Of a stretch of 64,000 nucleotides of DNA, positions 1 to 53,324 are shown one piece after another. Below the pieces are notes generated by a model. The model had not been told where the DNA came from, did no database searches, and saw only the letters and a list, made by a program, of their open reading frames with translations. The position numbers were made by a program, and so were the translations under genes. The DNA is taken from the IMG/VR virus record IMGVR_UViG_3300037041_002705, positions 1 through 64,000 of that record. One strand, given 5' to 3'. The number at the start of each line of letters is the position of its first letter. Within the stretch, counting starts at the first letter, position 1. The DNA is from a virus.

Positions 1-158
1 TTCAACATTTCTACTTCCTTCTCAAGGCCGTAGATCTTTGAGTCGAGCTTTGCAATGAGGTTGAATGCCATTCTGGCATCCTTCCATGAAAGCCAGGTCA
101 CATAGCCAGAACCTGCTGAAAAGATTGCGCCGATCAAGATTATCAGGTAGTGTTCCAT
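1..158 (-). CDS. small membrane protein, runs off window start
   Basis: Manual translation MEHYLIILIGAIFSAGSGYVTWLSWKDARMAF...; ATG overlaps the TAA of the upstream gene (TAATG); one hydrophobic helix. Confidence 0.6.
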   Translation of the reverse strand, partial: MEHYLIILIGAIFSAGSGYVTWLSWKDARMAFNLIAKLDSKIYGLEKEVEML

Positions 159-394
159 TAGTACAACTCCTCATCCTTTGATGGAACATCCTTCGTGAAT
201 ATGTCTGCGATCTTTGACTCGCTGATTGCGCTGATCTCAAAATCCTCTGGTGCAAGGGTTGCAAGGTTCTTGTGAACGATCACCTCTGCGTCTCCAATTG
301 AGACTGCCTCAACGAGATACTCGCGTGAGCTCTTTCTCACCTTTCCGTTGTCGTCTGTCGTCACAAACTTTACCTTTGCTACATAGTACTGCAT
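158..394 (-). CDS. DUF4494-family protein
   Basis: MQYYVAKVKF...GKVRKSSREYLVEAVSIGDAE...FEISAISESKIADIF fits the Bacteroidota DUF4494 pattern. Confidence 0.75.
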   Translation of the reverse strand: MQYYVAKVKFVTTDDNGKVRKSSREYLVEAVSIGDAEVIVHKNLATLAPEDFEISAISESKIADIFTKDVPSKDEELY

Positions 395-405
395 GTCTTC
401 TTCCT

Positions 406-1050
406 TTATGAATGTTGGTTTAATGCTGTGTGAATGTTTGGAAAGTTCTCTTTGAACAGTTCCATTATTGCATTTGCAATGTCTCTGTGTTCCTTCTGTG
501 TGTCTTCTAACGTTCTGAGCTCAAGGTAATGGATCCAATCCCTGACACTGCCCTTCATGTACATCGTCGTCTCGGTTGAGAGTGGAAGAACATCCCTTGC
601 CACTTCTCTTGCGACGCCGGCGTCCAACAATCGGTTGTAAACCTGTGTGGAAAAGATCTGAGCATTCTCAACAAGAAGCTCCAATTGTTCATCGTTGAGC
701 ACCTCGGCGCTACTCTGTCTGTTCTTATCTGCCTGCTTTCGCAGCTCAATCTTCTGAAGCTTTGTTGCAGTTGAGTATCGTTGGCTGAACTCCTGGAATG
801 AAAAGCTCCAGTGCCTAAGTATCTGCGCTGCGATGCTCCTTCTAGTTGTGATCTCGACAGTCATGTCAACAAACTCAAACGGTGACCAGTGCTTATGCTT
901 TATAAGGTATGCAATTAGCCTGGATGCAGTATCCTTGTTTAGTTGGTTTGATGGATTGCTTACTCTAGCTATATAGACTATAAGCTCTTCTGGCGTAAAC
1001 TCTGATAAGTCTGATAATACGGGGTGGGTTACTGATACTAGCTTTACCAT
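406..1050 (-). CDS. thyX: FAD-dependent thymidylate synthase ThyX
   Basis: ARVSNP, HWSPFE, RHWSFSFQEFSQRY, AREVARDVLP, TQKEHR motifs; ATG at 1050 preferred over TTG at 1059. Confidence 0.95.
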   Translation of the reverse strand: MVKLVSVTHPVLSDLSEFTPEELIVYIARVSNPSNQLNKDTASRLIAYLIKHKHWSPFEFVDMTVEITTRRSIAAQILRHWSFSFQEFSQRYSTATKLQKIELRKQADKNRQSSAEVLNDEQLELLVENAQIFSTQVYNRLLDAGVAREVARDVLPLSTETTMYMKGSVRDWIHYLELRTLEDTQKEHRDIANAIMELFKENFPNIHTALNQHS

Positions 1051-1204
1051 GCTCTTCAATTAGCCTTTCTGATATTCCTTTTATGATTCCTATTGCAAAA
1101 GTTCCAGCCATCATCAATCCAACTGTAAGAGATGCCAATGCCCCTCCAAGTGAGAAGATTAGGACCAGAATGGGAAGGTCCCATATAGAACTCCCAGGTT
1201 CCAT
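965..1204 (-). CDS. small membrane protein
   Basis: Long hydrophobic N-terminal half; abuts the upstream gene; 3' end overlaps thyX by 86 nt. Confidence 0.45.
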   Translation of the reverse strand: MEPGSSIWDLPILVLIFSLGGALASLTVGLMMAGTFAIGIIKGISERLIEEHGKASISNPPRIIRLIRVYARRAYSLYS

Positions 1205-1426
1205 TTATAGGAACTTCCTTGGGTCAATGCCTGGGTTGTTGACGATTTGCGTTGCCTGCCTTATTGCATCTGCAAGATGGCTAGGGCCAGTTATACCTTC
1301 ATTGAGGGCGCTTCCAAACCAGTCCTCCCAGATGATGTTTGCTGCTTCTTGGATCCTTGCATCAAGGTCTTCCTTGTAGTCATAGTCTACTGCCTTGTCA
1401 GTCCACCAATTTCTTCCATTTAGCAT
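1205..1426 (-). CDS. hypothetical protein
   Basis: 73-aa ORF tightly packed in the minus-strand operon. Confidence 0.6.
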   Translation of the reverse strand: MLNGRNWWTDKAVDYDYKEDLDARIQEAANIIWEDWFGSALNEGITGPSHLADAIRQATQIVNNPGIDPRKFL

Positions 1427-1427
1427 G

Positions 1428-1694
1428 TTAGTTGCTCCTTTGGTTGTTTATTGCTGATTCATAAACATTCTTTGGTTGTATCCCAACGAACCTACTTGTT
1501 TCAATCCCATCATTCTGTACGATGACAACTGGGATTCCCCGTATTCCATATTCAGATACTACATCTGGATTTTCATCAACATCAATCGTTTCAAATGTAA
1601 CATCCGGATTTTCTGCCTTTATCTCCTCAATTATAGGAGCCAATGCGCGACACGGCGAGCACCATTCAGCTGTGAACCTCTTAACCTTTATCAT
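1428..1694 (-). CDS. trxA: thioredoxin
   Basis: FTAEWCSPCRALAP active site and GIRGIP cis-Pro motif. Confidence 0.93.
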   Translation of the reverse strand: MIKVKRFTAEWCSPCRALAPIIEEIKAENPDVTFETIDVDENPDVVSEYGIRGIPVVIVQNDGIETSRFVGIQPKNVYESAINNQRSN

Positions 1695-1714
1695 CTTTTC
1701 CTCTGCTTGGTTTG

Positions 1715-2458
1715 TTAAATGACTTCTTTCAGTTCCATTATAGACACTCCATAGGTCTTTTGTTTTCCTATAATTGTTGTGTGTGATTCATGGTAGTGGC
1801 CATGATACCAGCCAAAATCATTGTTTATTGACACAACAAAATCATGGAGCTTCTTCATCTCCTCCTGGCTCTGTTCCATATCAGCCCTCAACGTCTTATC
1901 AATGTTCAGCCATTTAAGTGTTATTGGAGACTCTGTCCTAAATGGTGAACATTGGTGATACACATCATGTGTAAAAAGACAGTCAATTCTCTTTGGGATG
2001 ATCTTTGGCTTCTCCCAATGGTATGTTTCATTTGGCCAGTAGTTGACCCCTTTCACCCTGTTGATCCTATCTATTGATATTGCTCCTCCTGCAAAAAGAC
2101 AGACCTTTCCTTCTATCTCCATCACAGTGTTGTCGCTGACAAACTGTATGTTGTTCATATCATATGAACCATTGCAAGTCCAATATGTTGGATTGTCGTG
2201 GTTTCCTCTTATGACAAACATCTTTGAACCGGATCTTGAAAGTGAATAATCAAGGGTCTTTAGCTTCTTGTGCTCCTTTAGTGGATTGTCAAAGCCAAGA
2301 CCAAAGTCTCCAAGATGTATGAAACTCACAGCATGATCAAGTTTTAGCAGATCTATCTTGTCAGAAAGGTCTGCTATCTTTCCATGTATGTCACCTATTG
2401 CTACTATCATCGGTTTGTTTTTTATTCCCAATAGTCTTCTAATATATGAAATAAACAT
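1715..2458 (-). CDS. calcineurin-like metallophosphoesterase
   Basis: GDIHG, GDFG, RGNHD, THD and HGHYH motifs. Confidence 0.9.
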   Translation of the reverse strand: MFISYIRRLLGIKNKPMIVAIGDIHGKIADLSDKIDLLKLDHAVSFIHLGDFGLGFDNPLKEHKKLKTLDYSLSRSGSKMFVIRGNHDNPTYWTCNGSYDMNNIQFVSDNTVMEIEGKVCLFAGGAISIDRINRVKGVNYWPNETYHWEKPKIIPKRIDCLFTHDVYHQCSPFRTESPITLKWLNIDKTLRADMEQSQEEMKKLHDFVVSINNDFGWYHGHYHESHTTIIGKQKTYGVSIMELKEVI

Positions 2459-2459
2459 G

Positions 2460-2735
2460 TCAGTTTACAACATTTTTTCTTGGAGTTCCAATTATCATGA
2501 ACTCTCCATCTGGAGAAAACTGATCAGTCTCAGGAAGAAACAGTGTGCCGTTCTCCAAGAGAAACAGACAGGTCTCTCCGATGACTGCATCCATGAGCCA
2601 AACACCAGAATCAACCAGAAGCTGACATGAATCCATGAAGTCACCCTCGGTGTTCTCATGCTTTCCATAGAACACTGATATAGCTCTTTCAACCTCTAGA
2701 TCATATTCTTCACAGAATTCATCATCTGTTTCCAT
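2460..2735 (-). CDS. acidic hypothetical protein
   Basis: Start moved to METDDEF; the longer ORF call runs through a terminator hairpin. Confidence 0.55.
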   Translation of the reverse strand: METDDEFCEEYDLEVERAISVFYGKHENTEGDFMDSCQLLVDSGVWLMDAVIGETCLFLLENGTLFLPETDQFSPDGEFMIIGTPRKNVVN

Positions 2736-2752
2736 CCCATATGTATTCAAAT

Positions 2753-2786
2753 AAAAAAAACCGAGGGGAAAAATAACCCCTCGGTT
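2753..2786 (-). terminator. intrinsic terminator
   Basis: AACCGAGGGG-loop-CCCCTCGGTT with a T-run on the minus strand. Confidence 0.8.
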
Positions 2787-2898
2787 CCTGATCAGTGCCA
2801 TAATAAGCCCGATTCCTAGCAAGCACACTCTCATTGAGCATAGAAGCATTGCTTCCATAGGCCGAGCATGATCACTTGCGGGAGCGACCCGCCAATTA

Positions 2899-4065
2899 TT
2901 ACTGTGCTATTACAACCCACTGGCCATTGTGGTACAGAAGCGTTGCGCTGTTCCTTGGGCCAATGAATACATCTCCGCCCCAAACGTTCCAGATTCCTGC
3001 TGGGATCGAAACAAAGTTTGCAGTTGAGCTGTTAACGATTGTGATGATTCTTCCTTCTACTGCATTTGGAAGAGGCGTGTTAAAGTCCTGTGCAACACGA
3101 TAGATCAATGTTCTTACATCGTTATCAATTGTTGCGAGAGGAACAAGTGTCAACTGTGTTCTTCCTTCGATCCTTGTTGCGCTCCTCCATTGGAGAGAAG
3201 TTCCATTGGTTGTAAGTGTTGCGTAGTTTTCTGCGCCAGCTGCAGCAATTGCAGCAAGGTTAACACCGTTTGCATACACAAAGTGTGTATTTGTAGAGAC
3301 AAATGCACTATCTGCTCTTGTTGCATTTACTGCATTTGTTGCATTGACTGCATGTGCTGCTCTAACTGCAGAATCTGCAAGCGTTGCTTGGTCTGCAAGT
3401 GTTGCTCGGTCTGCAAGCCTAGAGCGGTTTGCAAGAAGAGCATATGATGCACTGTCTGCCCAAACTGCATGCGCTGAGCTAGATGCATAGAGCGACACAT
3501 CGCTTCTTACTGCATGGTCAGACTCTTTTGCATGAAGTGCACTGTCTGCCTTTGCTGCATGGCGGGCTTCATTTGCATTCACAGCATTTGTTGCATTCAC
3601 AGCATTTGTTGCATTTGCAGCATGAAGAGCGCTGTCTGCCTTAGCAGCATGAACTGCTTCTGTTGCAAGATCAGCAAGCTTTGCTGTGTTTGCCCTTACT
3701 GCTTGAATTGCAGTTCCTGCATATGGTGCAGGATCCATGATGATTGTGTCATGTGGCGTTCCATTGATTGCAACGTAGAGGTAGAGCCCACCACGATACT
3801 TCACAAGTGAATCAAGGTTCACATCCTTAAGGCGGTAGTTTACAACGCCGTTTACGATTTCGATCTCTTGGTTCTCAACATACCAAACTGGGTAGTTCTG
3901 GTCGTTGAAAGCAGATCCGAGCTTAAAGCCATCGCGAGCGATGTAGAGACTCAGATTGTTCTTTCCAGTCTGACTTGACCAACCTTGGTAGGTAAAGTCG
4001 ATGTTTTGTGCGTTTGTTGCAACCGTGAACAGGATGGCAACTAGTGCGAGTAATACTTTCTTCAT
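2899..4065 (-). CDS. secreted protein with Ala-rich repeat stalk
   Basis: Sec signal MKKVLLALVAILFTVATNA|Q; FTYQG and APYA motifs; NATNAV and HAAKADSALHA repeats; fibre-tip-like C-terminus. Confidence 0.8.
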   Translation of the reverse strand: MKKVLLALVAILFTVATNAQNIDFTYQGWSSQTGKNNLSLYIARDGFKLGSAFNDQNYPVWYVENQEIEIVNGVVNYRLKDVNLDSLVKYRGGLYLYVAINGTPHDTIIMDPAPYAGTAIQAVRANTAKLADLATEAVHAAKADSALHAANATNAVNATNAVNANEARHAAKADSALHAKESDHAVRSDVSLYASSSAHAVWADSASYALLANRSRLADRATLADQATLADSAVRAAHAVNATNAVNATRADSAFVSTNTHFVYANGVNLAAIAAAGAENYATLTTNGTSLQWRSATRIEGRTQLTLVPLATIDNDVRTLIYRVAQDFNTPLPNAVEGRIITIVNSSTANFVSIPAGIWNVWGGDVFIGPRNSATLLYHNGQWVVIAQ

Positions 4066-4078
4066 TATATCCTTCTCC

Positions 4079-4483
4079 TTATTGTTTGATGATTTTTACT
4101 GTTTTACCGTCTTGAGTTCTTACAAAATACATTCCAGATGGTGCACTCGATAGATCGAATGAACCTTCAATATCTCCTTGAAACACCAATGTTCCAATCT
4201 GTGAGAATACCCTAACATTTCCTGTATGCTCAATGTTAAAGATCCCATTTGACGGGTTCGGCCAAACCTTTGCACCTGGCTCTACCACAACTTCTTCCCT
4301 GACGCTTACCATGATGCCATTTGGCCTCCAGTATCCTGTCCATAGCCCTCTTCCTACTGGCGAGTAAGAAGATATCTTCCCAACTGTTGATGCCTTTGAT
4401 CCCATGCCAATATGGCTAGGGAAGTTGGTCGCACCACATACCACTGATCCCAACAATAGGACCAAAAATAAGACTTTTGTCAT
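4079..4483 (-). CDS. small T9SS type A sorting-domain protein
   Basis: Signal peptide plus C-terminal VWPNPSNG...DLSSAPSGMYFVR...KIIKQ. Confidence 0.85.
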   Translation of the reverse strand: MTKVLFLVLLLGSVVCGATNFPSHIGMGSKASTVGKISSYSPVGRGLWTGYWRPNGIMVSVREEVVVEPGAKVWPNPSNGIFNIEHTGNVRVFSQIGTLVFQGDIEGSFDLSSAPSGMYFVRTQDGKTVKIIKQ

Positions 4484-4531
4484 ACTTCTCCTTAGATTTT
4501 GTCTTTGTTATACTGAGGATGGAACCGAATG

Positions 4532-5557
4532 TTACGCCATTCCTGTTTCTTTTGGGCCGCCCCATCTGGCAATGCTACGCCCTACGGTATCACGTACATC
4601 AACGTGTGTGAACGTTGGATAAAGACCGAGCCCTCCCTTGTGCCAGCTGTTGAGCCAGGTGTATATCTCCTTTGGCGTGACTCCATCGATCTTTATGTCT
4701 GCTGCATTTCCATACATGTGTTGTGAATTCTTTGCAGCGCCTTTGAGCATCTTATTATACTTTGGTGTTCTGTATGCCGATATCACCTTTACTGGTTTTC
4801 CGAAGTGCGATCTTATCTTCTCTAAGAGATCAACAAGTGTTGGGTTTATCAGTATGACATCTGATCCGTCTCTGCACTTAAAGTCTGATACTTTGAAGTT
4901 TGGAGAAAGCTGTTTTGATCCATCCTTTGAAAGGCTGTACTGAACAGACTTGTCTGCCATTGATGAATCCTCTGGGAAGTTCACTCCTGGCTGGACCTGT
5001 TTACCTTTTATGACCGATGACGTTGGTGCCGATATGCTTGAAGATGCATTTGGATCAGTCTTTGCCTTCTTGACACCCTGTTCAATTCCTCCATCAGGTC
5101 TAGGTTCTAGTTCTATCGATGAAGGAAGCTGTGCCATTGCCTTGTTCTCTTTGAGGACATTCCACAGCTTTATTATTTCCCCCTCTTCAGATATCTCAAA
5201 TATGGATTTTAGTCCCTCAACAAATCCTCTGTCGATTGCATCTACGAGCTTGACATTTATTCCCATTTCCCTCATCACCAGCCTGCACTTGATGACTGCT
5301 GTTGATGTGTGTTGATCATACAATTCAACGTCGATGCCCTTGTCTATGTCCGAGAACCCAAGCATGTATATGCAGCCCTTGAGGTAAGTAACAAGATCGT
5401 TTCTTGATCCGGGTGTTATCACGGCAGATGAATCCATCTTTTCAAGAACACCATCAGAGATCTCAAGGCCTATCTCAGATATCTCAGGCCAGATCTCTAT
5501 GAACTGATCCTTTTCATATATTGATGTATCGTACTCTTTTGTGAATCCTAGTGCCAT
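4532..5557 (-). CDS. peptidase M15A-domain protein (peptidoglycan peptidase)
   Basis: C-terminal LSPNFKVSDFKCRDG, SAYRT, SQHMYGNAADI, FTHVDVR with Zn ligands H/D/H. Confidence 0.9.
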   Translation of the reverse strand: MALGFTKEYDTSIYEKDQFIEIWPEISEIGLEISDGVLEKMDSSAVITPGSRNDLVTYLKGCIYMLGFSDIDKGIDVELYDQHTSTAVIKCRLVMREMGINVKLVDAIDRGFVEGLKSIFEISEEGEIIKLWNVLKENKAMAQLPSSIELEPRPDGGIEQGVKKAKTDPNASSSISAPTSSVIKGKQVQPGVNFPEDSSMADKSVQYSLSKDGSKQLSPNFKVSDFKCRDGSDVILINPTLVDLLEKIRSHFGKPVKVISAYRTPKYNKMLKGAAKNSQHMYGNAADIKIDGVTPKEIYTWLNSWHKGGLGLYPTFTHVDVRDTVGRSIARWGGPKETGMA

Positions 5558-6249
5558 TACTTGCCTGCCTTTCTCTTTGCGATCATTTGCTTAAGCATCT
5601 TGTCGTTGTTTGCTATCTTGTAGATCCTCTCTGCCAGGTTTGACCTGAAGTTCTGTTCTTCTTTCTTGTCCCTGTCCTTTGATATCTCATACTTTTTGAG
5701 GACGTCTATTGCCTTTTGGGAAACCGATCCAGGTGAGGTCATGTTCCTCCAAACGCCTGGAAACTTTTCTCTCATCTCATACACTATGTATGCAAGCTGA
5801 GGCTCAAGGTCATCGATCTTGGAATTCTTCCAAAACGAATGGGAACTCTTCAACATTGGAAAGAACTCATCATTGTAATGGTCCCATCTCTGCCGTCCAT
5901 CATCAGTGGGCTTCTTTGTCAGCGTGGAATCCGTCCACTGTGCCAAACCACGACCTGGTCCTATTGGCTTTCCAGATATTATCTGAAGCTGCGTAGGATT
6001 GAAGTAGCTCTCCCTCCAGAGGTTTCCTGCTGTTGCAGAGGCTCCTTCAAGGCTCATCCCACTTGACACAAACCATCTTACTATGAACTTTGCAAGATCC
6101 TCTGGTATGTCATAGAGATCAGGCTGATCCCTTTGTCCGTAAGGCGTCTTTGGATACGGCGGGGTAAATGATTTTGCCTGCTTTGGTGGTTCATCATTCG
6201 ATGAGAAGAGCCCCTTGAACCAGTCTATTATATCGTTTACAAAATCCAC
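5557..6249 (-). CDS. phage tail lysozyme family protein
   Basis: AGNLWRES.FNP, GRGLAQWT, QLAYIVYEM motifs; GTG start at 6249 lies downstream of the ATATATA motif. Confidence 0.85.
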   Translation of the reverse strand: MDFVNDIIDWFKGLFSSNDEPPKQAKSFTPPYPKTPYGQRDQPDLYDIPEDLAKFIVRWFVSSGMSLEGASATAGNLWRESYFNPTQLQIISGKPIGPGRGLAQWTDSTLTKKPTDDGRQRWDHYNDEFFPMLKSSHSFWKNSKIDDLEPQLAYIVYEMREKFPGVWRNMTSPGSVSQKAIDVLKKYEISKDRDKKEEQNFRSNLAERIYKIANNDKMLKQMIAKRKAGK

Positions 6250-6265
6250 GTGGGAGAGATTTTTG

Positions 6266-6274
6266 CTATATATC
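6266..6274 (-). promoter_or_regulatory. putative late promoter (GATATATAG)
   Basis: Recurrent intergenic motif, here just after a terminator and before the lysozyme/M15A pair. Confidence 0.6.
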
Positions 6275-6279
6275 AAAGA

Positions 6280-6303
6280 AAAGGGGACCGTTTGGTCCCC
6301 TTT
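6280..6303 (-). terminator. intrinsic terminator after rpsU
   Basis: AAAGGGGACC-GTTT-GGTCCCCTTT followed by TCTTT on the minus strand. Confidence 0.8.
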
Positions 6304-6306
6304 GTC

Positions 6307-6543
6307 TTAGTCTAGATCAGCCAGAATTCGACGTTCCTTTTCTCGGCGCTTTGCGCGAGCCATGCGTTGCTTCTTGCGTTCGCTTGGCTTGATGTACTCC
6401 TGTCGCTCCTTGAATTCACGAAGGATCTTTGAAGAGTCAATCTTCTTCTTGAAACGGCGGATTGCACGATCGATGCTCTCGCCCTTTTCGACGATCACTC
6501 CGATCTTTCCGCTACGAATCTGCAAACTTGGATTGTTTGCCAT
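6307..6543 (-). CDS. rpsU: 30S ribosomal protein bS21
   Basis: VEKGESIDRAIRRFKKK...ILREFKERQEYIKPSERKK, the bS21 signature. Confidence 0.95.
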   Translation of the reverse strand: MANNPSLQIRSGKIGVIVEKGESIDRAIRRFKKKIDSSKILREFKERQEYIKPSERKKQRMARAKRREKERRILADLD

Positions 6544-6549
6544 CTGACC

Positions 6550-6560
6550 TCACCTCCTTT
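6550..6560 (-). promoter_or_regulatory. extended Shine-Dalgarno of rpsU
   Basis: Minus strand reads AAAGGAGGTGA-GGTCAG-ATG, complementary to the canonical 16S 3' end UCACCUCCUU. Confidence 0.85.
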
Positions 6561-6577
6561 CCTTGTTGGTAACAGTA

Positions 6578-6585
6578 CAAAGATA
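6578..6585 (-). promoter_or_regulatory. Bacteroidota-type -7 promoter element TATCTTTG
   Basis: Exact match to TAnnTTTG about 35 nt upstream of the rpsU start; no clear -33 TTTG. Confidence 0.55.
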
Positions 6586-6594
6586 ACTAAAAGG

Positions 6595-6603
6595 AATATA
6601 TAA
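6595..6603 (+). promoter_or_regulatory. putative late promoter (AATATATAA)
   Basis: Recurrent motif 23 nt before ATG 6627. Confidence 0.55.
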
Positions 6604-6626
6604 GAAAAGTAAATTTTCACATCCGC

Positions 6627-7220
6627 ATGAAACTCTCAGAAAAAGCCCGTTCATTGAACCCAATTGTGTACAATGAAGCAATCAAAGAGATCAACGAGAC
6701 CAGCATCCTATCATACGAGATCTGGGAGTCCCTCAACGAAAAGCAGATGACAAAGAAGAAGAACACATCTGGTGCAAGCTTTGAGACCTGGGCAGAGTGG
6801 AGATCGTGGATAAACATGTCAGCGGATGAACTCAAGAAGTTTTATGACTCTCCAGAGGGCAAGCAGGCAGGCATGAAGCAGCAGGCAGCAGGAAAGCTTG
6901 GCATAGACACTGGCCGTGAATCTGCAAGGTGGCTCATGAAGATGATACCAACAGGTTCTTCATGGTCAAGTGCCCTTGAGAACTGGACGCCAAAGATGTG
7001 GGAATGGGCAAAGAAACAGAACTCATTCAATGCAAGGATGTACGGAACATCAAAGAGGGCAAAGGGAAACCCATGGTATGATGACAAGACCGTCGATGGA
7101 AAGAAGACAAAGGTTCCAACAAGGATCCTTCTTGCACTGAAGATCTGGGGCCACAACCCAGAGAAGAAGAGGAAAGAGAAGCCTAGTGCTCCTAAAAATT
7201 TGGACCCAATCTACAAATGA
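6627..7220 (+). CDS. DUF3140-like protein
   Basis: INMSADELKKF, GRESAR and ALKIWGHNP resemble the DUF3140 VNMT..EL / GHESGR / SLMNWGHDP motifs. Confidence 0.65.
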   Translation: MKLSEKARSLNPIVYNEAIKEINETSILSYEIWESLNEKQMTKKKNTSGASFETWAEWRSWINMSADELKKFYDSPEGKQAGMKQQAAGKLGIDTGRESARWLMKMIPTGSSWSSALENWTPKMWEWAKKQNSFNARMYGTSKRAKGNPWYDDKTVDGKKTKVPTRILLALKIWGHNPEKKRKEKPSAPKNLDPIYK

Positions 7221-7471
7221 AAAAGGGCAAGAAGAAATCAAGGCTCATAAACCTTGGAGGCAAGAGTGATGAGATCTCAATGGAGAAGGGGCTGTTTGAC
7301 ATAACAGATGCCCCGATGGCTTACTCAAAAGGCAAAGGAAAAAAGAAGAAGGTCTGGGGCGAGTATGCCACCTGGATGGATCGAGGCCTTGGACCAAAGG
7401 GAATAAAGATTGAAGACGTTCCAGGTTGGAACAAGATCAAAGGATTTAAGACTTGGAAGGAATCTAAGTAA
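7217..7471 (+). CDS. basic hypothetical protein
   Basis: ATGA overlap with the upstream gene; Lys-rich. Confidence 0.6.
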   Translation: MKKGKKKSRLINLGGKSDEISMEKGLFDITDAPMAYSKGKGKKKKVWGEYATWMDRGLGPKGIKIEDVPGWNKIKGFKTWKESK

Positions 7472-7585
7472 TACCTAAAATCTCTTTTCGGCTCACTTCA
7501 GCCTAGGAAAAATGCTTATTGTGCCCGATATATTCTAATTGCCACAACCACATGAGCGCATTATACGTTTCATATTTGATACAAA

Positions 7586-7617
7586 TTAAAAAGGGATCCA
7601 ATGGATCCCTTTTTTAA
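7586..7617. terminator. bidirectional terminator
   Basis: AAAAAGGGATCCA-A-TGGATCCCTTTTTT between convergent genes. Confidence 0.8.
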
Positions 7618-7635
7618 CGACAGTATTTTCTTCTG

Positions 7636-8748
7636 TTAAGCCTCATCAAGTTTATCTGATATGCCCTTCCATGCATCTTCAGCTTTTGATGTTTTAGATT
7701 TATCATTGTCAGCTTTAATTGCTCCAAAAAAATCATTCGTATTTTTAATAGCAACATTATCTGGAGTTTTGAAACCATTTTTTGCAATATCTTTTAGTGC
7801 TAATGTAATGGTTGCAAATGTAGTTGTAGTAGGACCGGAGATGTCCTTTGTATCATTTGGCATCGGTCCCCAGAATGTTACCATATTTGCAATAGATTTT
7901 CCTAATTCATTTTTTAACTTTTTTACATTTTCATTGTAGAGTTCTTCAATCTGTTTATCTGTTAACTTTGACCCACCTTGTATCGAATCAGGGCCAAATG
8001 GCATTTCTAATTGCAATACCAATTTATCATCATTTGGGTCAACCTTGATATCTTTTTGCTTTCTCACATCCGGCTTTATTCTAATAACAAACTGTGTTGC
8101 ACGTTCTCCATTTTGTGATACAACATAGTCGCTACCAATCACCCTTTCTATCAATTTAATTCTTTTATCTTCTGGGAGTTCGATAAAGTTAGCGATGGTC
8201 ATTTTTGCAATTTCTCGTATGCTTTTCTTTGATTGTACTTTTGAACTTGCTAGTTTATCATTTTTAGCTATGTAAAGTAGTTCATCCATCGAGTTATTCA
8301 TTTCTTCATCAGATAGAGGTTCTAATTTCTGACCAGCAATTACCGAATAGATAAATTGTGCGAGTGATGTACTTTTTTGAAAAGCACCGGCATGTATGTT
8401 TCCCGCTCCTTCTATAGCTAGGATATTATTATCTTCAACTTCAAATGTAGCTTTGTCAAAGTCAAATGTAAATGTTGAAAGATCTTCATCTCCGGAAGAG
8501 GCACTAAGAGTTATTTTCTTATTAAGGGCCTTTGGGGTAATTGTGGTTCCATAATCCCTATCCTTTCCAGAAAATGCTTTATTTACTAACTTAGCTATAT
8601 GCTTTGCAAGGCCATCAGAAGATTTTGCATAAGATTCTTCTTTATCATAATTAAATCCTAGGTCAAATTTAATTGTTTGTATTTTATTAGCGTCTATACC
8701 TTCATTTACACTTTGAATCCATGATTCAAATAGCTTGACGTATTTCAT
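7636..8748 (-). CDS. hypothetical protein with capsid-targeting-like N-terminus
   Basis: Starts MKYVKLFESWIQSVNE; visibly more AT-rich than its neighbours; GATATATAG upstream. Confidence 0.75.
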   Translation of the reverse strand: MKYVKLFESWIQSVNEGIDANKIQTIKFDLGFNYDKEESYAKSSDGLAKHIAKLVNKAFSGKDRDYGTTITPKALNKKITLSASSGDEDLSTFTFDFDKATFEVEDNNILAIEGAGNIHAGAFQKSTSLAQFIYSVIAGQKLEPLSDEEMNNSMDELLYIAKNDKLASSKVQSKKSIREIAKMTIANFIELPEDKRIKLIERVIGSDYVVSQNGERATQFVIRIKPDVRKQKDIKVDPNDDKLVLQLEMPFGPDSIQGGSKLTDKQIEELYNENVKKLKNELGKSIANMVTFWGPMPNDTKDISGPTTTTFATITLALKDIAKNGFKTPDNVAIKNTNDFFGAIKADNDKSKTSKAEDAWKGISDKLDEA

Positions 8749-8772
8749 ATGTCATTTATTTTTTTGCTTACT

Positions 8773-8781
8773 CTATATATC
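8773..8781 (-). promoter_or_regulatory. putative late promoter (GATATATAG)
   Basis: Recurrent motif 24 nt before ATG 8748. Confidence 0.6.
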
Positions 8782-8881
8782 AAAATGCTCAAGAAAATCA
8801 AAAAGTGTTTTTTTTGAATCTATATTCTATGTATATTGCATCTATAAGTTATTTCAACACAGCCACCCAAGGGCAGTTCCA

Positions 8882-10072
8882 ATGAAAAACATCATTCTCC
8901 TCCTAGCCTTTATAGCTCTCAATATCCCATCTGTTTCACAGACAAAGGGACAAAAACCAAGCGATTTGGCTGAGTTCTTTATCCGCCCAATGATCCAGGA
9001 TGAATACTACCCAGCAGCACCAGACTCACTATACGAGCTTGAATGGGACCAACTTGTCAGCCGGCTTGATGAGTACACATACTACAACGGTGAAGAAGAG
9101 ACAGTAAAACGCAGTGACATGCTCATTGGATCGCAAGTAAAGGGAGCAACGGGAATTCGCCTCATCACAAAGGACTCATTTGTGGTTGTATCAAAGGTAT
9201 GGAAGGATGGGCCTGCATACAACCAAGGAATTGGCATCGGAGACACAATCCTTTCTGTTGGGGGAAATATTGTTAAGAATCACGGGGACGCATCAGCAAA
9301 CATCCGTGGCAAAGTTGGAACAAAGGTTGTTGTGTCAGTTGCCCGTGAAGGAAAGCGATTTGATGTTGAGCTTGAGCGTTCAGCCGTCAAGGTATCAACA
9401 GCAATGGGCAAGAAGCAGGGCAACACACTCCGATTCAAGGTGTTCATGTTCTCTGAGGGCGTGTCTGATTCCATCGCAAACATTGCCTCACGCCTCGGAA
9501 CAAAGGGAGTTGACACTGTTGTTCTCGACCTTCGTGGAAACTCAGGAGGCCTTCTCAGCGAGGGTGAATCAATGGCCAAGCTCTTTGTGAAGGAAGGAGA
9601 TACAGCATTGGTATACAAGCGTCGCAAGGGAGAAGAAGTCGTCATGTCTGACGAATACAACCCTCTCCAGAACATCAAGAACATCGTCGTGCTTATCGAC
9701 TCTGGAACAGCATCAAGCTCAGAGATCGTTGCAGGAACACTCAAGGTTCGTCGCAATGCAAAGATCGTTGGAACAAAGAGCTACGGCAAGGGTGTTATCC
9801 AACATGTGAAGGAAGTTGAAGGTGGTTCATTCAAGATGACAGTTGCCGAGTACTTTGCAGGTGGAACACTCAAGATCCAAGGCGTTGGCATCTTTCCTGA
9901 TGTTGAGTTCTCAGAGAAGCCGGTTGATGCAGCAGTTGCAGCAGGCCTTGATCTCAAGAAGTTCCGCAAGGACAATCCACTCCCAAACATCGATGCCCTC
10001 AAGAAGGCAAAGCTCGGACCTGAAGTTGCCGAGTACATCTGGGGCGATCTTGGAATCTTTGAACTCCGTTAA
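8882..10072 (+). CDS. S41 family C-terminal processing protease (PDZ + S41)
   Basis: Signal peptide MKNIILLLAFIAL; PDZ GIRL...GPA...IGDTILSV; LDLRGNSGG, TASSSE (catalytic Ser), KSYGKG (catalytic Lys), GIFPD. Confidence 0.92.
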   Translation: MKNIILLLAFIALNIPSVSQTKGQKPSDLAEFFIRPMIQDEYYPAAPDSLYELEWDQLVSRLDEYTYYNGEEETVKRSDMLIGSQVKGATGIRLITKDSFVVVSKVWKDGPAYNQGIGIGDTILSVGGNIVKNHGDASANIRGKVGTKVVVSVAREGKRFDVELERSAVKVSTAMGKKQGNTLRFKVFMFSEGVSDSIANIASRLGTKGVDTVVLDLRGNSGGLLSEGESMAKLFVKEGDTALVYKRRKGEEVVMSDEYNPLQNIKNIVVLIDSGTASSSEIVAGTLKVRRNAKIVGTKSYGKGVIQHVKEVEGGSFKMTVAEYFAGGTLKIQGVGIFPDVEFSEKPVDAAVAAGLDLKKFRKDNPLPNIDALKKAKLGPEVAEYIWGDLGIFELR

Positions 10073-13342: not shown

Positions 13343-13351
13343 CTATATATG
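13343..13351 (-). promoter_or_regulatory. putative late promoter (CATATATAG), possibly leaderless
   Basis: Motif immediately followed by ATGATG. Confidence 0.5.
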
Positions 13352-13355
13352 ATTG

Positions 13356-15821
13356 TTAACACTTAGTCCATCCGCAATCCCGACAAATCACGCAGCCGTC
13401 TCCACGCTCAACATTGTGTCCGCCACATGATGGGCACTCTTCTCCATGGACCTTTGTTCCGTCCTTGATGTACCTCTTCAGGTTTCTTGCAAGGACCTTT
13501 GCAAAGGAAAGGAGATCACCCTTTGTCTTTTCAAGCTGATGGACAACGAATCCAATGTCTGATCCATGACGCAATGAGGTTGAGATCATTCTGCACAGAG
13601 CATCTGCGTTCTCATCATTGTGTCCGTTTGTGAGCTTGTATGACTGATCACCTGAGTTGAAGAAGTAGTTTCCTCTTCCCTTCTTTGTGACTGTTCCTGT
13701 CATTCCGTTCTTTGGAATGATGGTCTCCTGCACGCCATCAGCACCATGCTCATTGATGCCAGTGAATATCTCATAAGGCTCTCCATTAAGCAATCCGATG
13801 ACAACATAATATGGATGGCCCTTGATGTTGCTGATCCATGCCTCTGCAGGAAGCGCCTCTGGCCTCTTTGGTGCATTGTTCTTTACGATGACATTTTCGT
13901 CCTTCTTCTCTTCTGTCTTCTTCTCAACAAGAACACCGGTGCGACAGTTCTTCCTGTATACAGTCATGCCCTTGCAACCATACTGCCATGCAGCTTCGTA
14001 GATCTTTGCAACTTCTTCCTCTGTAACTTCTTCTGGAAGGTTGACGGTCTTTGAGATTGCATGGTCGATGTACTTCTGTGCTGCTGCCTGGAGCTTCACT
14101 GCTTGTACCCAATCAATGTCCTCTGCGCAGTAGCCAAACCATGGTGACTTCTTAAGGTCCTTCTCGCCTGTTACTTCCATCCACATCTTCACCTTTGGAT
14201 GGTAGACCTCAAACTCCTGCCAGTGGTCTCCGTTCTGATCGACGAAGTCGGTCTTTGCATTTGCATCGTTTGGATTGATCTTCTTCCTTCTTGTGTATGG
14301 GAACAACATGAACAGCGGTTCAACACCAGATGTTGTCTGTGAGAGGATCGAAAGAGATCCTGTAGGAGCAATTGTAAGGTTTGCAATGTTCCTTCTGCCG
14401 TACTTCTCCATGTCTGCGTAGAGTTCCTTGTCTGCCTTCTGAATCTCCTTTGCAAAGCTGGTATCCTTTTCAAGATCCCAGTTCCAGATTGGGAATGCAC
14501 CGAGCTCTTTTGCCATGTCGACAGAAGACCTGAATGATGCAACCATCATCATCTTATGGATCTTTTCAACGAATGAAATGCTTTCTTCTGAGCCGTATCC
14601 CAGTCCAAGGGCAGCAATCATGTCTCCCATTGCGGTTATGCCGGTTCCCGTCCTTCTTCCATCCTGACACTTTCTCTTTACCTTGTTCCATAGATCAAGC
14701 TCTGCCTTCTTTGTCTCAGCGTCCTCTGGATCTGACTTGATCTTCTTGATGATGGCATCAATCTTTTCAAGCTCAAGATCGATCATGTTGTCCATGAGCC
14801 TTTGGCATATTACCGCATGCTCCTTGAAGAGAGAAAAGTTGAACTTGGCCTTTGCCGTAAAAGGATTCTCGACGTATGAGAACAGGTTAAGAACCATGAG
14901 GCGGCATGAGTCATACGTACAAAGTGGAAGCTCAGAGCATGGGTTTGTGCTAACAGTCTCAAAACCAAACTCCTTGTAACAATCGACCATGTTGTGGCCA
15001 GTTACGCGGTCCCAGAATAGAAGGCCTGGTTCTGCACGAAGCCATGAATTATGGATGATCTTCTTCCAGAGATCCTTTGCATCTACCCACGTATCGTTGT
15101 CACTAGGAGGTGCATCAACAGGGAAGCGAAGCCTAAACTTGTCACCCTTCTTGACTGCATCAAGAAACTCATTTGAAAGCCTAACAGAGATGTTTGCCCC
15201 TGTCACCTTTGTATCGTCATTCTTAATTGTGATGAAGTTCTCAATGTCCTTGTGAGCAACATCAACAGTAAGCATCAAGGCGCCACGACGGCCTGACTGT
15301 CCGACTTCGCGAATGGTGTTTGAATACCTCTCCATCCAGGATCCGATTCCGGTGCTTGTCCTTGCTGCATTCTTTACGCCAGTTCCAGCAGGCCTGAGCG
15401 TTGAAATGTCAACACCAACGCCACCACGACGCTTTGATATCTGTGCAAGTTCCTCATCGATTTTCATGATTCCGCCATAGCTATCCTTTGGTGAATCAAC
15501 CACATAACAGTTTGACAATGAGATCAACTGGTAGTTGTTTCCGATGCCAAACATCGGGCTTCCCTGCGGAATGATATACTTGAATCCATCGAGGAGGCCA
15601 AAGATCTGTTCCTCTGACATTGGATTTGAAAACTTCTTCTTTTCAATCCTTGCAAACTCAGATGCAATCCTTCTGTGCATGTGCACCGGAGTTGCTTCCA
15701 AAAGGTTCTGTTGGTTGTCCCTGAGTGCGTATTTGTCAAGAAATACCTTTGCTGCAAGCTCATCTCCAGCAAAATATTCCAACGCAAGTTGGAATGCCTC
15801 TTCGTATGTGTACGTCTGCAT
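13356..15821 (-). CDS. nrdJ: class II (adenosylcobalamin-dependent) ribonucleotide reductase
   Basis: SLSNCYV, GRRGALM, TNPCSE, TIAPTGS, KGMTVYR and a C-terminal CPSCG...CRDCGWTKC Zn ribbon; no adjacent nrdB. Confidence 0.92.
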   Translation of the reverse strand: MQTYTYEEAFQLALEYFAGDELAAKVFLDKYALRDNQQNLLEATPVHMHRRIASEFARIEKKKFSNPMSEEQIFGLLDGFKYIIPQGSPMFGIGNNYQLISLSNCYVVDSPKDSYGGIMKIDEELAQISKRRGGVGVDISTLRPAGTGVKNAARTSTGIGSWMERYSNTIREVGQSGRRGALMLTVDVAHKDIENFITIKNDDTKVTGANISVRLSNEFLDAVKKGDKFRLRFPVDAPPSDNDTWVDAKDLWKKIIHNSWLRAEPGLLFWDRVTGHNMVDCYKEFGFETVSTNPCSELPLCTYDSCRLMVLNLFSYVENPFTAKAKFNFSLFKEHAVICQRLMDNMIDLELEKIDAIIKKIKSDPEDAETKKAELDLWNKVKRKCQDGRRTGTGITAMGDMIAALGLGYGSEESISFVEKIHKMMMVASFRSSVDMAKELGAFPIWNWDLEKDTSFAKEIQKADKELYADMEKYGRRNIANLTIAPTGSLSILSQTTSGVEPLFMLFPYTRRKKINPNDANAKTDFVDQNGDHWQEFEVYHPKVKMWMEVTGEKDLKKSPWFGYCAEDIDWVQAVKLQAAAQKYIDHAISKTVNLPEEVTEEEVAKIYEAAWQYGCKGMTVYRKNCRTGVLVEKKTEEKKDENVIVKNNAPKRPEALPAEAWISNIKGHPYYVVIGLLNGEPYEIFTGINEHGADGVQETIIPKNGMTGTVTKKGRGNYFFNSGDQSYKLTNGHNDENADALCRMISTSLRHGSDIGFVVHQLEKTKGDLLSFAKVLARNLKRYIKDGTKVHGEECPSCGGHNVERGDGCVICRDCGWTKC

Positions 15822-15828
15822 TTTTCCC

Positions 15829-17211
15829 TTATTTTTGTTTTTGTAACTTCTTTAACTGTTCTATTGCTTTTTCTATCTCTTTTGCTTCTTCTTTGCTCTG
15901 AACCCGACGGTTGAAGAGGTTCGTTAAGAACCTTCTGGACACTGATTCTGTCTTTGCATCAAAAACCGCCCCGGTGGCAGTCCTTATATAATCGTCGCCC
16001 TCCATGTCATTTCTCTTCCCAAGGTAAGTTTCTGGAGAGATGTTGAACTGCCTCATTGTTGTAGGGTACAGACTGGCAAAGTCATACGTAACAACCCATT
16101 CATACAAGCCAGGGACTGGATCCTTAACAAATGCGCCCTCATATGTCTTGCCTTCTTCAAGCTCGCCCTTTCTCACAAGAATTCTGTTCTTGTCATAGAA
16201 CTCTCTGACAAGCAACGTCTCGGTCATTCTGATTGGGCTAAATGCACCAAGAAGTTCTACACGTGCTATATTTGCCAAAGACAGATATGTTCCCATCACC
16301 GATATCTCTTTGTCAATATACATGACAAGAAGAGTGTCTACGATGTTATAGAACACATATTTCTTGAAGTCCTTCTCATAGAGATCCTTCAATGTTCCAT
16401 TGTACTTGATCTTTGTGAGCTTAAGAACCTGGTCAGCAACGTAGTCAAGCTTTGCGGATTCCTTTACATCGACCTTGTTGTCCCACTTGCTGTAGATCTT
16501 CATGTAGTCGACGATTGGTCTGTGCTGAGGTATCGTCTCCTTGTCAACAAACTTTCTGCTAGGAGATGCAACCATAGGGTCTATGTTCAACCTCTTGCAA
16601 CGATTGACAAGATACTGCCAATCGAAGTTTGTGAAGTTCCAACCTGTGATGAGAGGCATCTGTGGGATGTACTTATTAAAGAACACATAGAGCATCTCAT
16701 ACTCATTCTCAAAGCTCATGAACTTGACAGTGAAGTCTGCATTGTACTTCTTGAAGTAGTCGTTCACATCAACCTGAATGTCTGCAACGTCACCCTGATC
16801 AAGTGGCTTTATTGAGAGAACAAATGCCTTTTGGCCATGCGCAAAGCAGATCGTTGTTATCCTGTTTGGTGCATTTGCCGGCTCAGGAAAACCATCATCG
16901 GTAACTTCAACCTCAATGTCACAGAACCACACTCGTGGCCTGTTTGGCTGGTAGATGCGATTCTTTACTTCTTCAGGAAGGCCATACAGAAACTCTTCTA
17001 CCCGATACCTTGATAGCATCGACTTCTTGGTCTTTCTGATTGCCCTGTTGTCCCAAGACCTCCAGGTTGTGTCAACATCCTTGAGCCTTGTTGCATACTC
17101 CCACTCAAAGCGCTCAGAATCAGGGATGGGGATGTTCTCAAAGACCATCATCCCATCCTCATTGAATCTGCTTATCTTCAAGAGCCCTGGTTCCTGCTCA
17201 ATGTCTATCAT
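15829..17211 (-). CDS. family B DNA polymerase, N-terminal subunit (split, gp43A-like)
   Basis: Exonuclease motifs DIE, GWNFTNFD, YNIVD; YEGAFV and motif A YDFASLYP; ORF ends in the fingers helix before motifs B and C. Confidence 0.9.
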   Translation of the reverse strand: MIDIEQEPGLLKISRFNEDGMMVFENIPIPDSERFEWEYATRLKDVDTTWRSWDNRAIRKTKKSMLSRYRVEEFLYGLPEEVKNRIYQPNRPRVWFCDIEVEVTDDGFPEPANAPNRITTICFAHGQKAFVLSIKPLDQGDVADIQVDVNDYFKKYNADFTVKFMSFENEYEMLYVFFNKYIPQMPLITGWNFTNFDWQYLVNRCKRLNIDPMVASPSRKFVDKETIPQHRPIVDYMKIYSKWDNKVDVKESAKLDYVADQVLKLTKIKYNGTLKDLYEKDFKKYVFYNIVDTLLVMYIDKEISVMGTYLSLANIARVELLGAFSPIRMTETLLVREFYDKNRILVRKGELEEGKTYEGAFVKDPVPGLYEWVVTYDFASLYPTTMRQFNISPETYLGKRNDMEGDDYIRTATGAVFDAKTESVSRRFLTNLFNRRVQSKEEAKEIEKAIEQLKKLQKQK

Positions 17212-18926: not shown

Positions 18927-18935
18927 CATATATAG
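18927..18935 (+). promoter_or_regulatory. putative late promoter (CATATATAG), possibly leaderless
   Basis: Directly after the terminator and 3 nt before ATG 18939. Confidence 0.6.
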
Positions 18936-20169: not shown

Positions 20170-20371
20170 GTTCAAGGAACCAAAATACTTGGTTCAACCA
20201 CATGACAACAAGGAGTACTATTTTCAGGTTGCAAAGGAGTTCAAGAAGTCCCAGAGCAATAAGGACTTCACAACCATGAGCTACCAGGACTGGCTGAAGA
20301 AGTACAAGAAGAAATATGGCGTTAGTGGCGAAGGCGCCCTTGAGCCCATAGAAAAGGGTGATAAGCGCTGA
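20150..20371 (+). CDS. small basic hypothetical protein
   Basis: ORF overlapping the phoH end; start at 20150 or 20132. Confidence 0.6.
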   Translation: MAIKDHKFKEPKYLVQPHDNKEYYFQVAKEFKKSQSNKDFTTMSYQDWLKKYKKKYGVSGEGALEPIEKGDKR

Positions 20372-20378
20372 TATATAG
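20370..20378 (+). promoter_or_regulatory. putative late promoter (GATATATAG)
   Basis: Recurrent motif 16 nt before ATG 20395. Confidence 0.6.
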
Positions 20379-36877: not shown

Positions 36878-36886
36878 AATATATAG
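36878..36886 (+). promoter_or_regulatory. putative late promoter (AATATATAG), possibly leaderless
   Basis: 4 nt before ATG 36891 of the neck gene. Confidence 0.6.
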
Positions 36887-39534: not shown

Positions 39535-39543
39535 AAATAATTG

Positions 39544-53315: not shown

Positions 53316-53324
53316 GATATATAG
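53316..53324 (+). promoter_or_regulatory. putative late promoter (GATATATAG)
   Basis: 17 nt before ATG 53342. Confidence 0.65.

Follow-up and report, generated by a model that had tools for sequence, protein, structure and literature searches.

The bS21 gene (rpsU) of a Mahaphage-related freshwater jumbo myovirus carries an extended Shine–Dalgarno (SD) sequence with 13 contiguous predicted pairs to the 16S rRNA tail. No other gene start on the contig comes close to it, and the nearest bacterial rpsU genes carry the same signal. The gene lies in the window analyzed here, the first 64 kb of the 133,673-b IMG/VR virus record IMGVR_UViG_3300037041_002705. bS21 is the ribosomal protein most commonly encoded by phages, and no example of a ribosome's protein content governing its choice of mRNA is better understood than the rpsU loop of Bacteroidota. 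The locus joins the two, as a phage copy that carries the loop's cis element under what appears to be selection. Our preferred reading, to which we assign a probability of about 0.5, is that ribosomal subunits lacking bS21 are the main readers of the phage rpsU mRNA, which competes for them with host rpsU mRNA and so loads phage bS21 into ribosomes. The phage may in this way tap into the host's own bS21 control loop.

An Extended SD at a Single Gene Start

Phage rpsU occupies 6307..6543 on the minus strand and, in the list of open reading frames (ORFs), encodes 78 aa between an ATG start and a TAA stop. The product matches the Ribosomal_S21 profile PF01165 at 56.8 bits (curated cut-off 27; E = 1.8e-15) over profile positions 2–54 of 55, a nearly full-length match that places it in the bS21 family. 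Twenty-four solved bS21 chains match the protein at E ≤ 0.001.

In the rpsU leader, 6 nt separate GGAAAGGAGGTGA from the ATG; this 13-nt element spans 6550..6562 (minus strand), or mRNA positions −19..−7. Each start was scored by the energy of the duplex that mRNA positions −22..−3 form with a 15-nt 16S tail, for 117 genes called on the whole contig by a simple codon-bias and greedy-overlap method. The tail, UCACCUCCUUUCU, is an assumed sequence for a host that is itself assigned indirectly; it occurs exactly once in each of two of the five genomes holding the nearest bacterial bS21, the two that seemingly contain the rRNA end. Against this tail the element forms 13 contiguous pairs (12 Watson–Crick plus a terminal G–U) with a free energy (ΔG) of −22.2 kcal/mol. 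At this length, energy and initiation distance it belongs with the extended SDs of Flavobacteriales rpsU, described as having 9–13 consecutive pairs and ΔG < −13 (Arpin 2026). The initial annotation, made from the sequence alone, had proposed a full SD six nucleotides ahead of the ATG; its motif, AAAGGAGGTGA, is right, and the complementarity runs two bases beyond it.

Only rpsU scores −14 or below (1/117), and allowing each gene its best in-frame alternative start does not alter this. Among first starts the second best reaches −13.4, which leaves a gap of 8.8 kcal/mol. Gene starts have a median ΔG of −3.6, identical to that of the contig's 20-nt windows taken together; when every such window on both strands is scanned, the rpsU site is the best on the contig and the runner-up (−19.7) lies inside a gene. 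Other leaders are A-rich (35–56% A at −25..−1 vs. 31% in the genome) and G-poor (8–15% G at −22..−12). The annotators' impressions that no other gene has a comparable complement to the anti-SD, and that most leaders are rich in A, are thus borne out over all 117 starts. Across Bacteroidia, rpsU SDs have a mode near −20 kcal/mol, and Flavobacteriales genomes hold about one outlier gene each (McNutt 2023).

The Nearest Bacterial rpsU Genes Carry the Same Signal

A scan of one genome per species yielded 80 bacterial relatives at 44–60% identity to the phage protein. Labels of Bacteroidota, Bacteroidetes, Ignavibacteria(e), Chitinophaga(ceae), Chlorobiaceae or Kapaibacterium account for 74 of them; the other six comprise one Synechococcus metagenome-assembled genome (MAG), two Hyphomicrobiales MAGs and three unclassified records. 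A genome search by phylum returned a match in 201/201 cases without taxon labels, and hence gave no class placement.

Extended SDs are the rule on these genes: 69 of 76 distinct bacterial rpsU leaders score −15 or below (median −18.4), compared with one of 154 neighboring ORF starts in the same bacteria (median −4.35). Two apparent exceptions among the 76 are script artefacts, with an SD visible in both. The core, AGGAGGTGA, is shared with the phage leader at similar spacing. Start codons among the 76 scored genes are mostly TTG or GTG (65), with ATG in the remaining 11, and the nearest bacterial genes follow closely behind an upstream gene, unlike the phage unit.

Two side observations concern this bacterial set. 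The same rpsU type occurs on an 8-kb contig of the Synechococcus-labelled MAG (L093) and in the two Hyphomicrobiales-labelled ones (L110, L162), on contigs that look mis-binned; the SD is extended in the first (−16.1) and weaker in the other two (−13.4 and −8.7). In nine further genes (L136, L141, L142, L144, L146–L148, L152 and L163), CTG replaces the usual TTG start a few bases past the extended SD, and, apart from a GTG that falls within the SD, no canonical start is in frame, which suggests initiation at a non-canonical codon.

Conservation of the Leader

A protein search recovered 18 clusters at 76–100% identity to the phage bS21. Two of these, L013 and L014, whose proteins are 96% and 85% identical, supplied DNA for alignment to the locus, and in both the SD is identical in sequence and score. 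Within the 30-nt leader (−30..−1; 6544..6573, minus strand), 0/30 and 1/30 positions have changed, respectively, compared with 13/28 and 11/25 fourfold-degenerate sites in rpsU (~45%). The intergenic DNA further upstream has changed at 16/71 and 24/72 positions. Because the leader has stayed almost intact while the fourfold sites have not, it is clearly constrained, as under purifying selection. The codons of rpsU point the same way for the protein, with 3 and 10 amino-acid-changing against 23 and 20 synonymous differences in the two relatives. Two strain-level contigs, from two other studies, show 32/701 and 12/488 differences from the window, none of them within 6533–6587. A leader fold masking the SD was not significant (z = 0.26 and −0.77).

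This conservation bears on the simplest account of the shared core, in which the SD is a relic that arrived with a gene captured from a Bacteroidota host and has no role in the phage. Identity of core and similarity of spacing fit that account, yet the capture must be old, as the best bacterial identity found is at most 60%. The phage copy has features of its own: an ATG and an N-terminal extension in place of the TTG or GTG of 65/76 bacterial genes, and a leader, promoter and terminator that differ from the bacterial ones. Other phage lineages lost the extended SD or never had it, and a signal without function would hardly be kept through 30 nt beside fourfold sites so heavily changed. We therefore hold a functionless relic to be very improbable.

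A bS21 of Neither Flavobacterium nor Bacteroidia Type

Relative to bacterial bS21, the phage protein has an N-terminal extension of 13 codons (6505..6543, minus strand): the Pfam match starts at residue 16, and the bacterial relatives align from residue 14. Extension and C-terminal end are common to all 18 clusters; across the clade the extension keeps its length and start position (ATG or GTG) and varies in sequence. The SD is spaced for the upstream ATG, and the extension would therefore be translated. An N-terminal extension had been noted in the initial annotation and is indeed present, as a trait already described for phage S21 (Al-Shayeb et al. 2020).

The C-terminal part is a different matter. 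Bacteroidetes-type bS21 has been defined by Tyr54 together with a less basic tail (Jha 2021), a property that we gauge by isoelectric point (pI) and charge and not on Jha's own scale. In an alignment to F. johnsoniae bS21 (7jil_z), query residues 17–64 pair with chain residues 5–52, and extending this alignment without gaps places Arg66 at the Tyr54 position. Seventeen of the 18 clade members have no aromatic residue (Y, F, W or H) beyond the KPS motif. The segment that follows this motif has a pI of 11.3 and a net charge of +6 (n = 18), against a pI of 10.0 in eight Bacteroidia-like phage bS21. Both hallmarks of the Bacteroidia type are thus absent. The nearest bacterial proteins resemble the phage copy in this respect (C-terminal pI 11.6; no aromatic residue in 46/57), and Chlorobia are reported to combine strong rpsU SDs with a bS21 lacking Tyr54 (McNutt 2023). 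The Flavobacterium framing of the initial annotation accordingly gives way, on residue 66 and tail charge as well as on the nearest bacterial relatives, which are MAGs labelled mainly Bacteroidota, Bacteroidetes or Ignavibacteria.

These residues raise the possibility of a feed-forward switch, in which phage bS21 would fill its site without hiding the anti-SD and so favor phage rpsU along with the SD-bearing minority of phage genes. The Arg at the Tyr54 position and the basic tail without aromatics speak for such a switch, and in F. johnsoniae the Y54A and ΔC forms of bS21 raise the output of an SD reporter three- to four-fold (McNutt 2023). The nine same-strand genes downstream of rpsU (158–5557, minus strand) are also richer in SDs, with a median ΔG of −8.2 vs. 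−3.15 for the rest (Mann–Whitney P = 7e-4). This is a single window found post hoc, the most extreme nine-gene window; it includes genes for a DUF4494 protein, ThyX, thioredoxin, a phosphoesterase, a protein with a secretion-sorting tail (see Host below), an M15 peptidase and a lysozyme-domain protein. Against the switch, most phage genes, structural ones included, lack an SD, and F. johnsoniae ribosomes with a freed anti-SD initiate less on SD-less mRNAs (McNutt 2023). Nearest bacterial bS21 also lack Tyr54 and yet sit in SD-poor contexts with rpsU as the outlier; another way of hiding the anti-SD may therefore exist. On balance we consider a feed-forward switch doubtful.

A Separate Transcription Unit

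Just past the stop codon lies a Rho-independent terminator (6272..6303, minus strand) with a 10-pair stem (6303–6280), a 4-nt loop and a T run. It was recovered by a terminator scan and folds at −20.1 kcal/mol (z = −5.7; 0/200 shuffles fold as well), and in L014 both arms have changed, yet the stem persists. The view of rpsU as a stand-alone unit with its own terminator, already put forward in the initial annotation, therefore stands.

The −7-type promoter element attributed to the gene fares less evenly. Bacteroidota sigma-A promoters combine a −33 TTTG with a −7 TAnnTTTG, the boxes ~19–21 nt apart. A candidate −7 box, TATCTTTG, is present at 6578..6585 (minus strand) and is conserved as TATGTTTG and TATATTTG in the relatives, with only one "n" position varying. 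The motif is not enriched over the genome, however (115 sites vs. 106 ± 11 in shuffles; only four sites in non-coding DNA upstream of a gene), and no −33 box (TTTG or TTG) stands upstream of the rpsU −7 box, where a T run occupies the expected place. No sigma-70-type promoter matched upstream of rpsU.

Host

The host likely belongs to Bacteroidota in the wide sense, and possibly to an Ignavibacteria-like lineage. We base the assignment on a type IX secretion system (T9SS) sorting domain, on likeness to Mahaphages, Lak phages and phages of Flavobacteriia, and on the A-rich, SD-poor leaders. The sorting domain, Por_Secre_tail (E = 1.3e-9), follows a signal peptide in a small phage protein of 134 aa (4079–4483, minus strand) that is presumably exported through the host T9SS. 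The same domain gives 64–150 hits in each of the five genomes that hold the nearest bS21 (5/5) and none in 14 control genomes. The phage helicase, family-B DNA polymerase (PolB) and large terminase subunit (TerL) are nearest to those of huge uncultured phages (LR7565xx, LR745206) and Lak Prevotella phages, and their neighbors include Tenacibaculum phage PTm1, Chryseobacterium phage MA9V-2 and Flavobacterium phages, as well as Sphingomonas phage PAU. The Bacteroidota setting assumed at the outset is thus plausible.

CheckV puts the contig at 42% completeness, so that 133.7 kb imply a full genome of roughly 300 kb. Matching DNA occurs in lake, freshwater and sediment metagenomes from several studies. 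No tRNA gene was found in the 133.7 kb, and neither blastn of 4500–9000 nor tblastn of the bS21 against a phage collection returned a match.

A Proposed Route into Host Ribosomes

In F. johnsoniae the anti-SD is hidden on most ribosomes, and good pairing with an extended SD is limited to 30S subunits that lack bS21; translation of rpsU there strictly needs SD/anti-SD pairing and runs faster on bS21-free ribosomes (McNutt 2023, Arpin 2026). By cryo-electron microscopy the pairing is a 13-bp helix spanning −20..−8 that cannot coexist with bound bS21 (Arpin 2026). Carried over to the phage, these findings suggest how its gene could work. As a separate transcription unit, rpsU would yield an mRNA with the same kind of 13-bp SD as Bacteroidota rpsU, to be read mainly by bS21-free 30S subunits. 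It would compete with host rpsU mRNA for those subunits, whose empty bS21 site would then be filled by the phage protein. The phage would thereby use the host's bS21 homeostat to load a protein of its own.

In a bolder version, the mRNA would act as an exchange device: initiation would expel the resident host bS21, and newly made phage protein would fill the site. The argument starts from the mutual exclusion of helix and bS21 in F. johnsoniae (Arpin 2026), because of which a replete ribosome could initiate on this leader only by losing its bS21. If this were so, abundant phage mRNA would outcompete host rpsU mRNA for bS21-free subunits as well, and the ribosome pool would shift toward a form marked by the phage protein, with its N-terminal extension and its own type of C-terminal tail, which would explain how phage bS21 enters ribosomes. 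We think such an exchange unlikely.

Several lines of evidence weigh against reading by bS21-free subunits. The first is the protein itself: with no Tyr54 and a basic tail, it may leave the anti-SD exposed, in which case negative feedback might fail to close. To our knowledge, anti-SD hiding has been demonstrated structurally only in F. johnsoniae, while the phage's host is assigned from indirect signs. The comparisons are also narrow: the scan for bacterial relatives used two peptide patterns, and leader conservation was gauged on a small sample of two relatives and two strain-level contigs.

A second line comes from other phage bS21 genes. All ten IMG/VR loci whose bS21 has a proteobacterial-like tail lack an extended SD (10/10; −1.3 to −6.4). 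We examined 37 further IMG/VR loci, of which 34 have a readable start (all but L187, L202 and L203). The closest IMG/VR relative, L173 (61% identity, on a 260-kb contig), has no SD. Nor is an extended SD present in any of eight distinct Bacteroidia-like IMG/VR proteins with a Tyr54 equivalent, and three huge phages of 735, 635 and 642 kb, with a Tyr54-type bS21 and no extension, have leaders at −12.1, −5.1 and −2.4. Altogether, 11 of 11 distinct Bacteroidia-type sequences examined (14 loci), three Mahaphages included, are without one. The 735-kb phage (L215; LR756501.1) has a moderate SD, AAAGGAGG, which accounts for its −12.1, and one of its three neighboring ORFs scores −11.8; in the 635- and 642-kb phages the bS21 gene is without any SD. 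No bS21 was found in LR756500.1 (the closest genome), PTm1 or Lak-B5. The proposal that the phage copy "retains" the host's SD thus applies to the present clade and fails for Bacteroidia-type phage bS21.

Strong leaders do occur elsewhere. Six IMG/VR loci score −14 to −17.5 (L177, L178, L185, L186, L201 and L197); in the first five the neighbors have SDs too (medians −7.2 to −10), and L197 reaches −14.0 beside a neighbor median of −2.9 from three ORFs. Among the loci examined, only the present clade clearly combines an extended SD with a phage otherwise poor in SDs; L197 is a possible second case.

The third line concerns how far the host reads SDs at all. rpsU is a lone outlier on this contig, but moderate SDs are about two-fold enriched at its gene starts and not depleted as in Flavobacteriales: 19/117 starts score −8 or below vs. 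8.1% of background windows, and 5/117 reach −12 or below vs. 0.7%. Because moderate SDs are commoner at starts than in the background, the host may read some of them. In that case the rpsU leader could be a plain strong ribosome-binding site that secures high output of an abundantly needed protein and senses nothing. The SD-rich nine-gene block adjoining rpsU fits this explanation, and so do bS21 genes of SD-using phages (L178, L185, L186 and L201), whose leaders at −15.4 to −17.5 stand among neighbors that use SDs themselves; ribosomes of Ignavibacteria-like lineages, moreover, are not known to hide their anti-SD. Other findings speak against it. Highly expressed structural genes such as those for the tail sheath and TerL have no SD, the energy gap between rpsU and the next best gene start is wide, and E. 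coli complexes typically contain no more than seven pairs (Arpin 2026), far short of 13. The nearest bacterial genomes, furthermore, show rpsU as the same kind of outlier. A plain strong site is, in our judgment, improbable, and reading by bS21-free subunits remains the explanation we prefer.

Flanking Signals and Neighboring Genes

A second sequence signal seems to mark the units on either side of rpsU. The box ATATATAG occurs 15 times in 133.7 kb, 11 times within 120 nt upstream of a same-strand start; the twelfth copy, at 6266..6273 (minus strand), lies just past the rpsU terminator, where it may serve the phage as promoter for the next unit, made up of the lysozyme gene and those after it, and is conserved in L013 and L014. 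The box often takes the form GATATATAG, and it clusters near starts although only 3,706 bases of the contig are non-coding. Examples besides the rpsU-proximal copy are 8773–8780 and 13343–13350 on the minus strand and 18928–18935, 20371–20378, 36879–36886 and 53317–53324 on the plus strand. It is probably a phage-specific promoter; a role as a "late" box was rejected, since it precedes both replication-type and structural-side genes. Three copies lie 8–12 nt before an ATG, and the mRNAs concerned would be leaderless or nearly so. In the proteobacterial-like phage bS21 genes L002–L011, CTATATATAG or GCTATATAATAG, resembling ATATATAG, stands ~45–50 nt before the ATG.

On the other side, ATATATAA (6596..6603, plus strand) lies upstream of a divergent gene at 6627–7220, and L013 and L014 have an ATATATA[AG] box at the corresponding position. 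rpsU would seem, then, to lie between two units that use a phage-specific signal it does not share. Its immediate neighbors are a gene with a tail-lysozyme domain and a gene of unknown function; TerL is encoded at 39541–41433.

Two further loci in the window deserve mention. An S41 C-terminal processing peptidase with a PDZ domain (8735–10072, plus strand) probably starts at an internal Met before a signal-peptide-like stretch and is probably exported; we considered it as an attacker of host bS21, a phage strategy on which McNutt 2023 speculated, and rejected the idea, as that stretch points to export. The gene for the large subunit of a ribonucleotide reductase, which has a TSCPD domain (13356–15821, minus strand), adjoins one for a 460-aa PolB piece (15829–17211, minus strand) that comprises the exonuclease domain but only the beginning of the polymerase domain; the enzyme may be split, or a second gene may carry it.

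Relation to Known Systems

Several elements of this locus are already in print: phage bS21 itself, its N-terminal extensions (Al-Shayeb et al. 2020), Bacteroidetes hosts of bS21-encoding phages (Chen et al. 2022) and the bacterial rpsU loop. Full-text literature searches, covering main texts, returned no report of a phage rpsU with an extended SD. The main text of Chen et al. 2022 mentions no SD, promoter or terminator at the phage bS21 gene, and that of Mizuno et al. 2019 no SD; an SD at phage rpsU was likewise not found in the text consulted of a 2025 paper on large aquatic phages, and the word phage is absent from the two 2026 NAR papers. In the passages of McNutt 2023 consulted, phages come up solely as a danger against which the host loop might act.

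The clades a–e of Chen et al. 2022 (ISME Commun) resemble the present phage as large freshwater myoviruses with predicted Bacteroidota hosts and a bS21 gene oriented opposite to its upstream neighbor. They differ in GC content (31–34% vs. 43.3% here), in gene position (bS21 on the reverse strand within about five genes of TerL, portal, protease or major capsid protein, as against ~33 kb from TerL here) and in the protein, since the phage bS21 of that study all have an aromatic residue at Tyr54 (Tyr in 54/61, another aromatic in 7/61) and the present one has none. The phage thus falls outside clades a–e by position near TerL and by GC combined with the aromatic residue. IMG/VR phage bS21 of their type have no SD, in contrast to the extended SD described here.

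Mahaphages and Lak phages (Al-Shayeb et al. 2020) are the closest in helicase, PolB and TerL, at 33–40% identity; unlike the present phage, however, the 735-, 635- and 642-kb genomes encode a Tyr54 bS21 without the extension, and LR756500.1 has no bS21. Pelagibacter phage HTVC008M (Mizuno et al. 2019) shares a phage bS21 under purifying selection, and its protein is incorporated into ribosomes in E. coli. It infects another host group, and the ten IMG/VR loci with its type of C-terminus have no SD.

The closest functional parallel is the rpsU autoregulation of Bacteroidota (Jha 2021, McNutt 2023, Arpin 2026). Common to both are a lone extended-SD gene in an SD-poor genome with ΔG near −20 kcal/mol and 13 contiguous pairs with 16S nt 1532–1544, one of them G–U. 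The helix sits one base nearer the start codon in the phage (−19..−7) than in F. johnsoniae (−20..−8). The phage version differs in residing on a phage, in a protein without Tyr54 and with a basic tail and a 13-residue N-terminal extension, and in standing apart as a terminated unit of its own, in contrast to the nearest bacterial rpsU genes, which have an upstream gene close before them. Set beside the Tyr54-bearing phage bS21 that lack an SD, the present clade points to two or more ways in which phages put bS21 to use.

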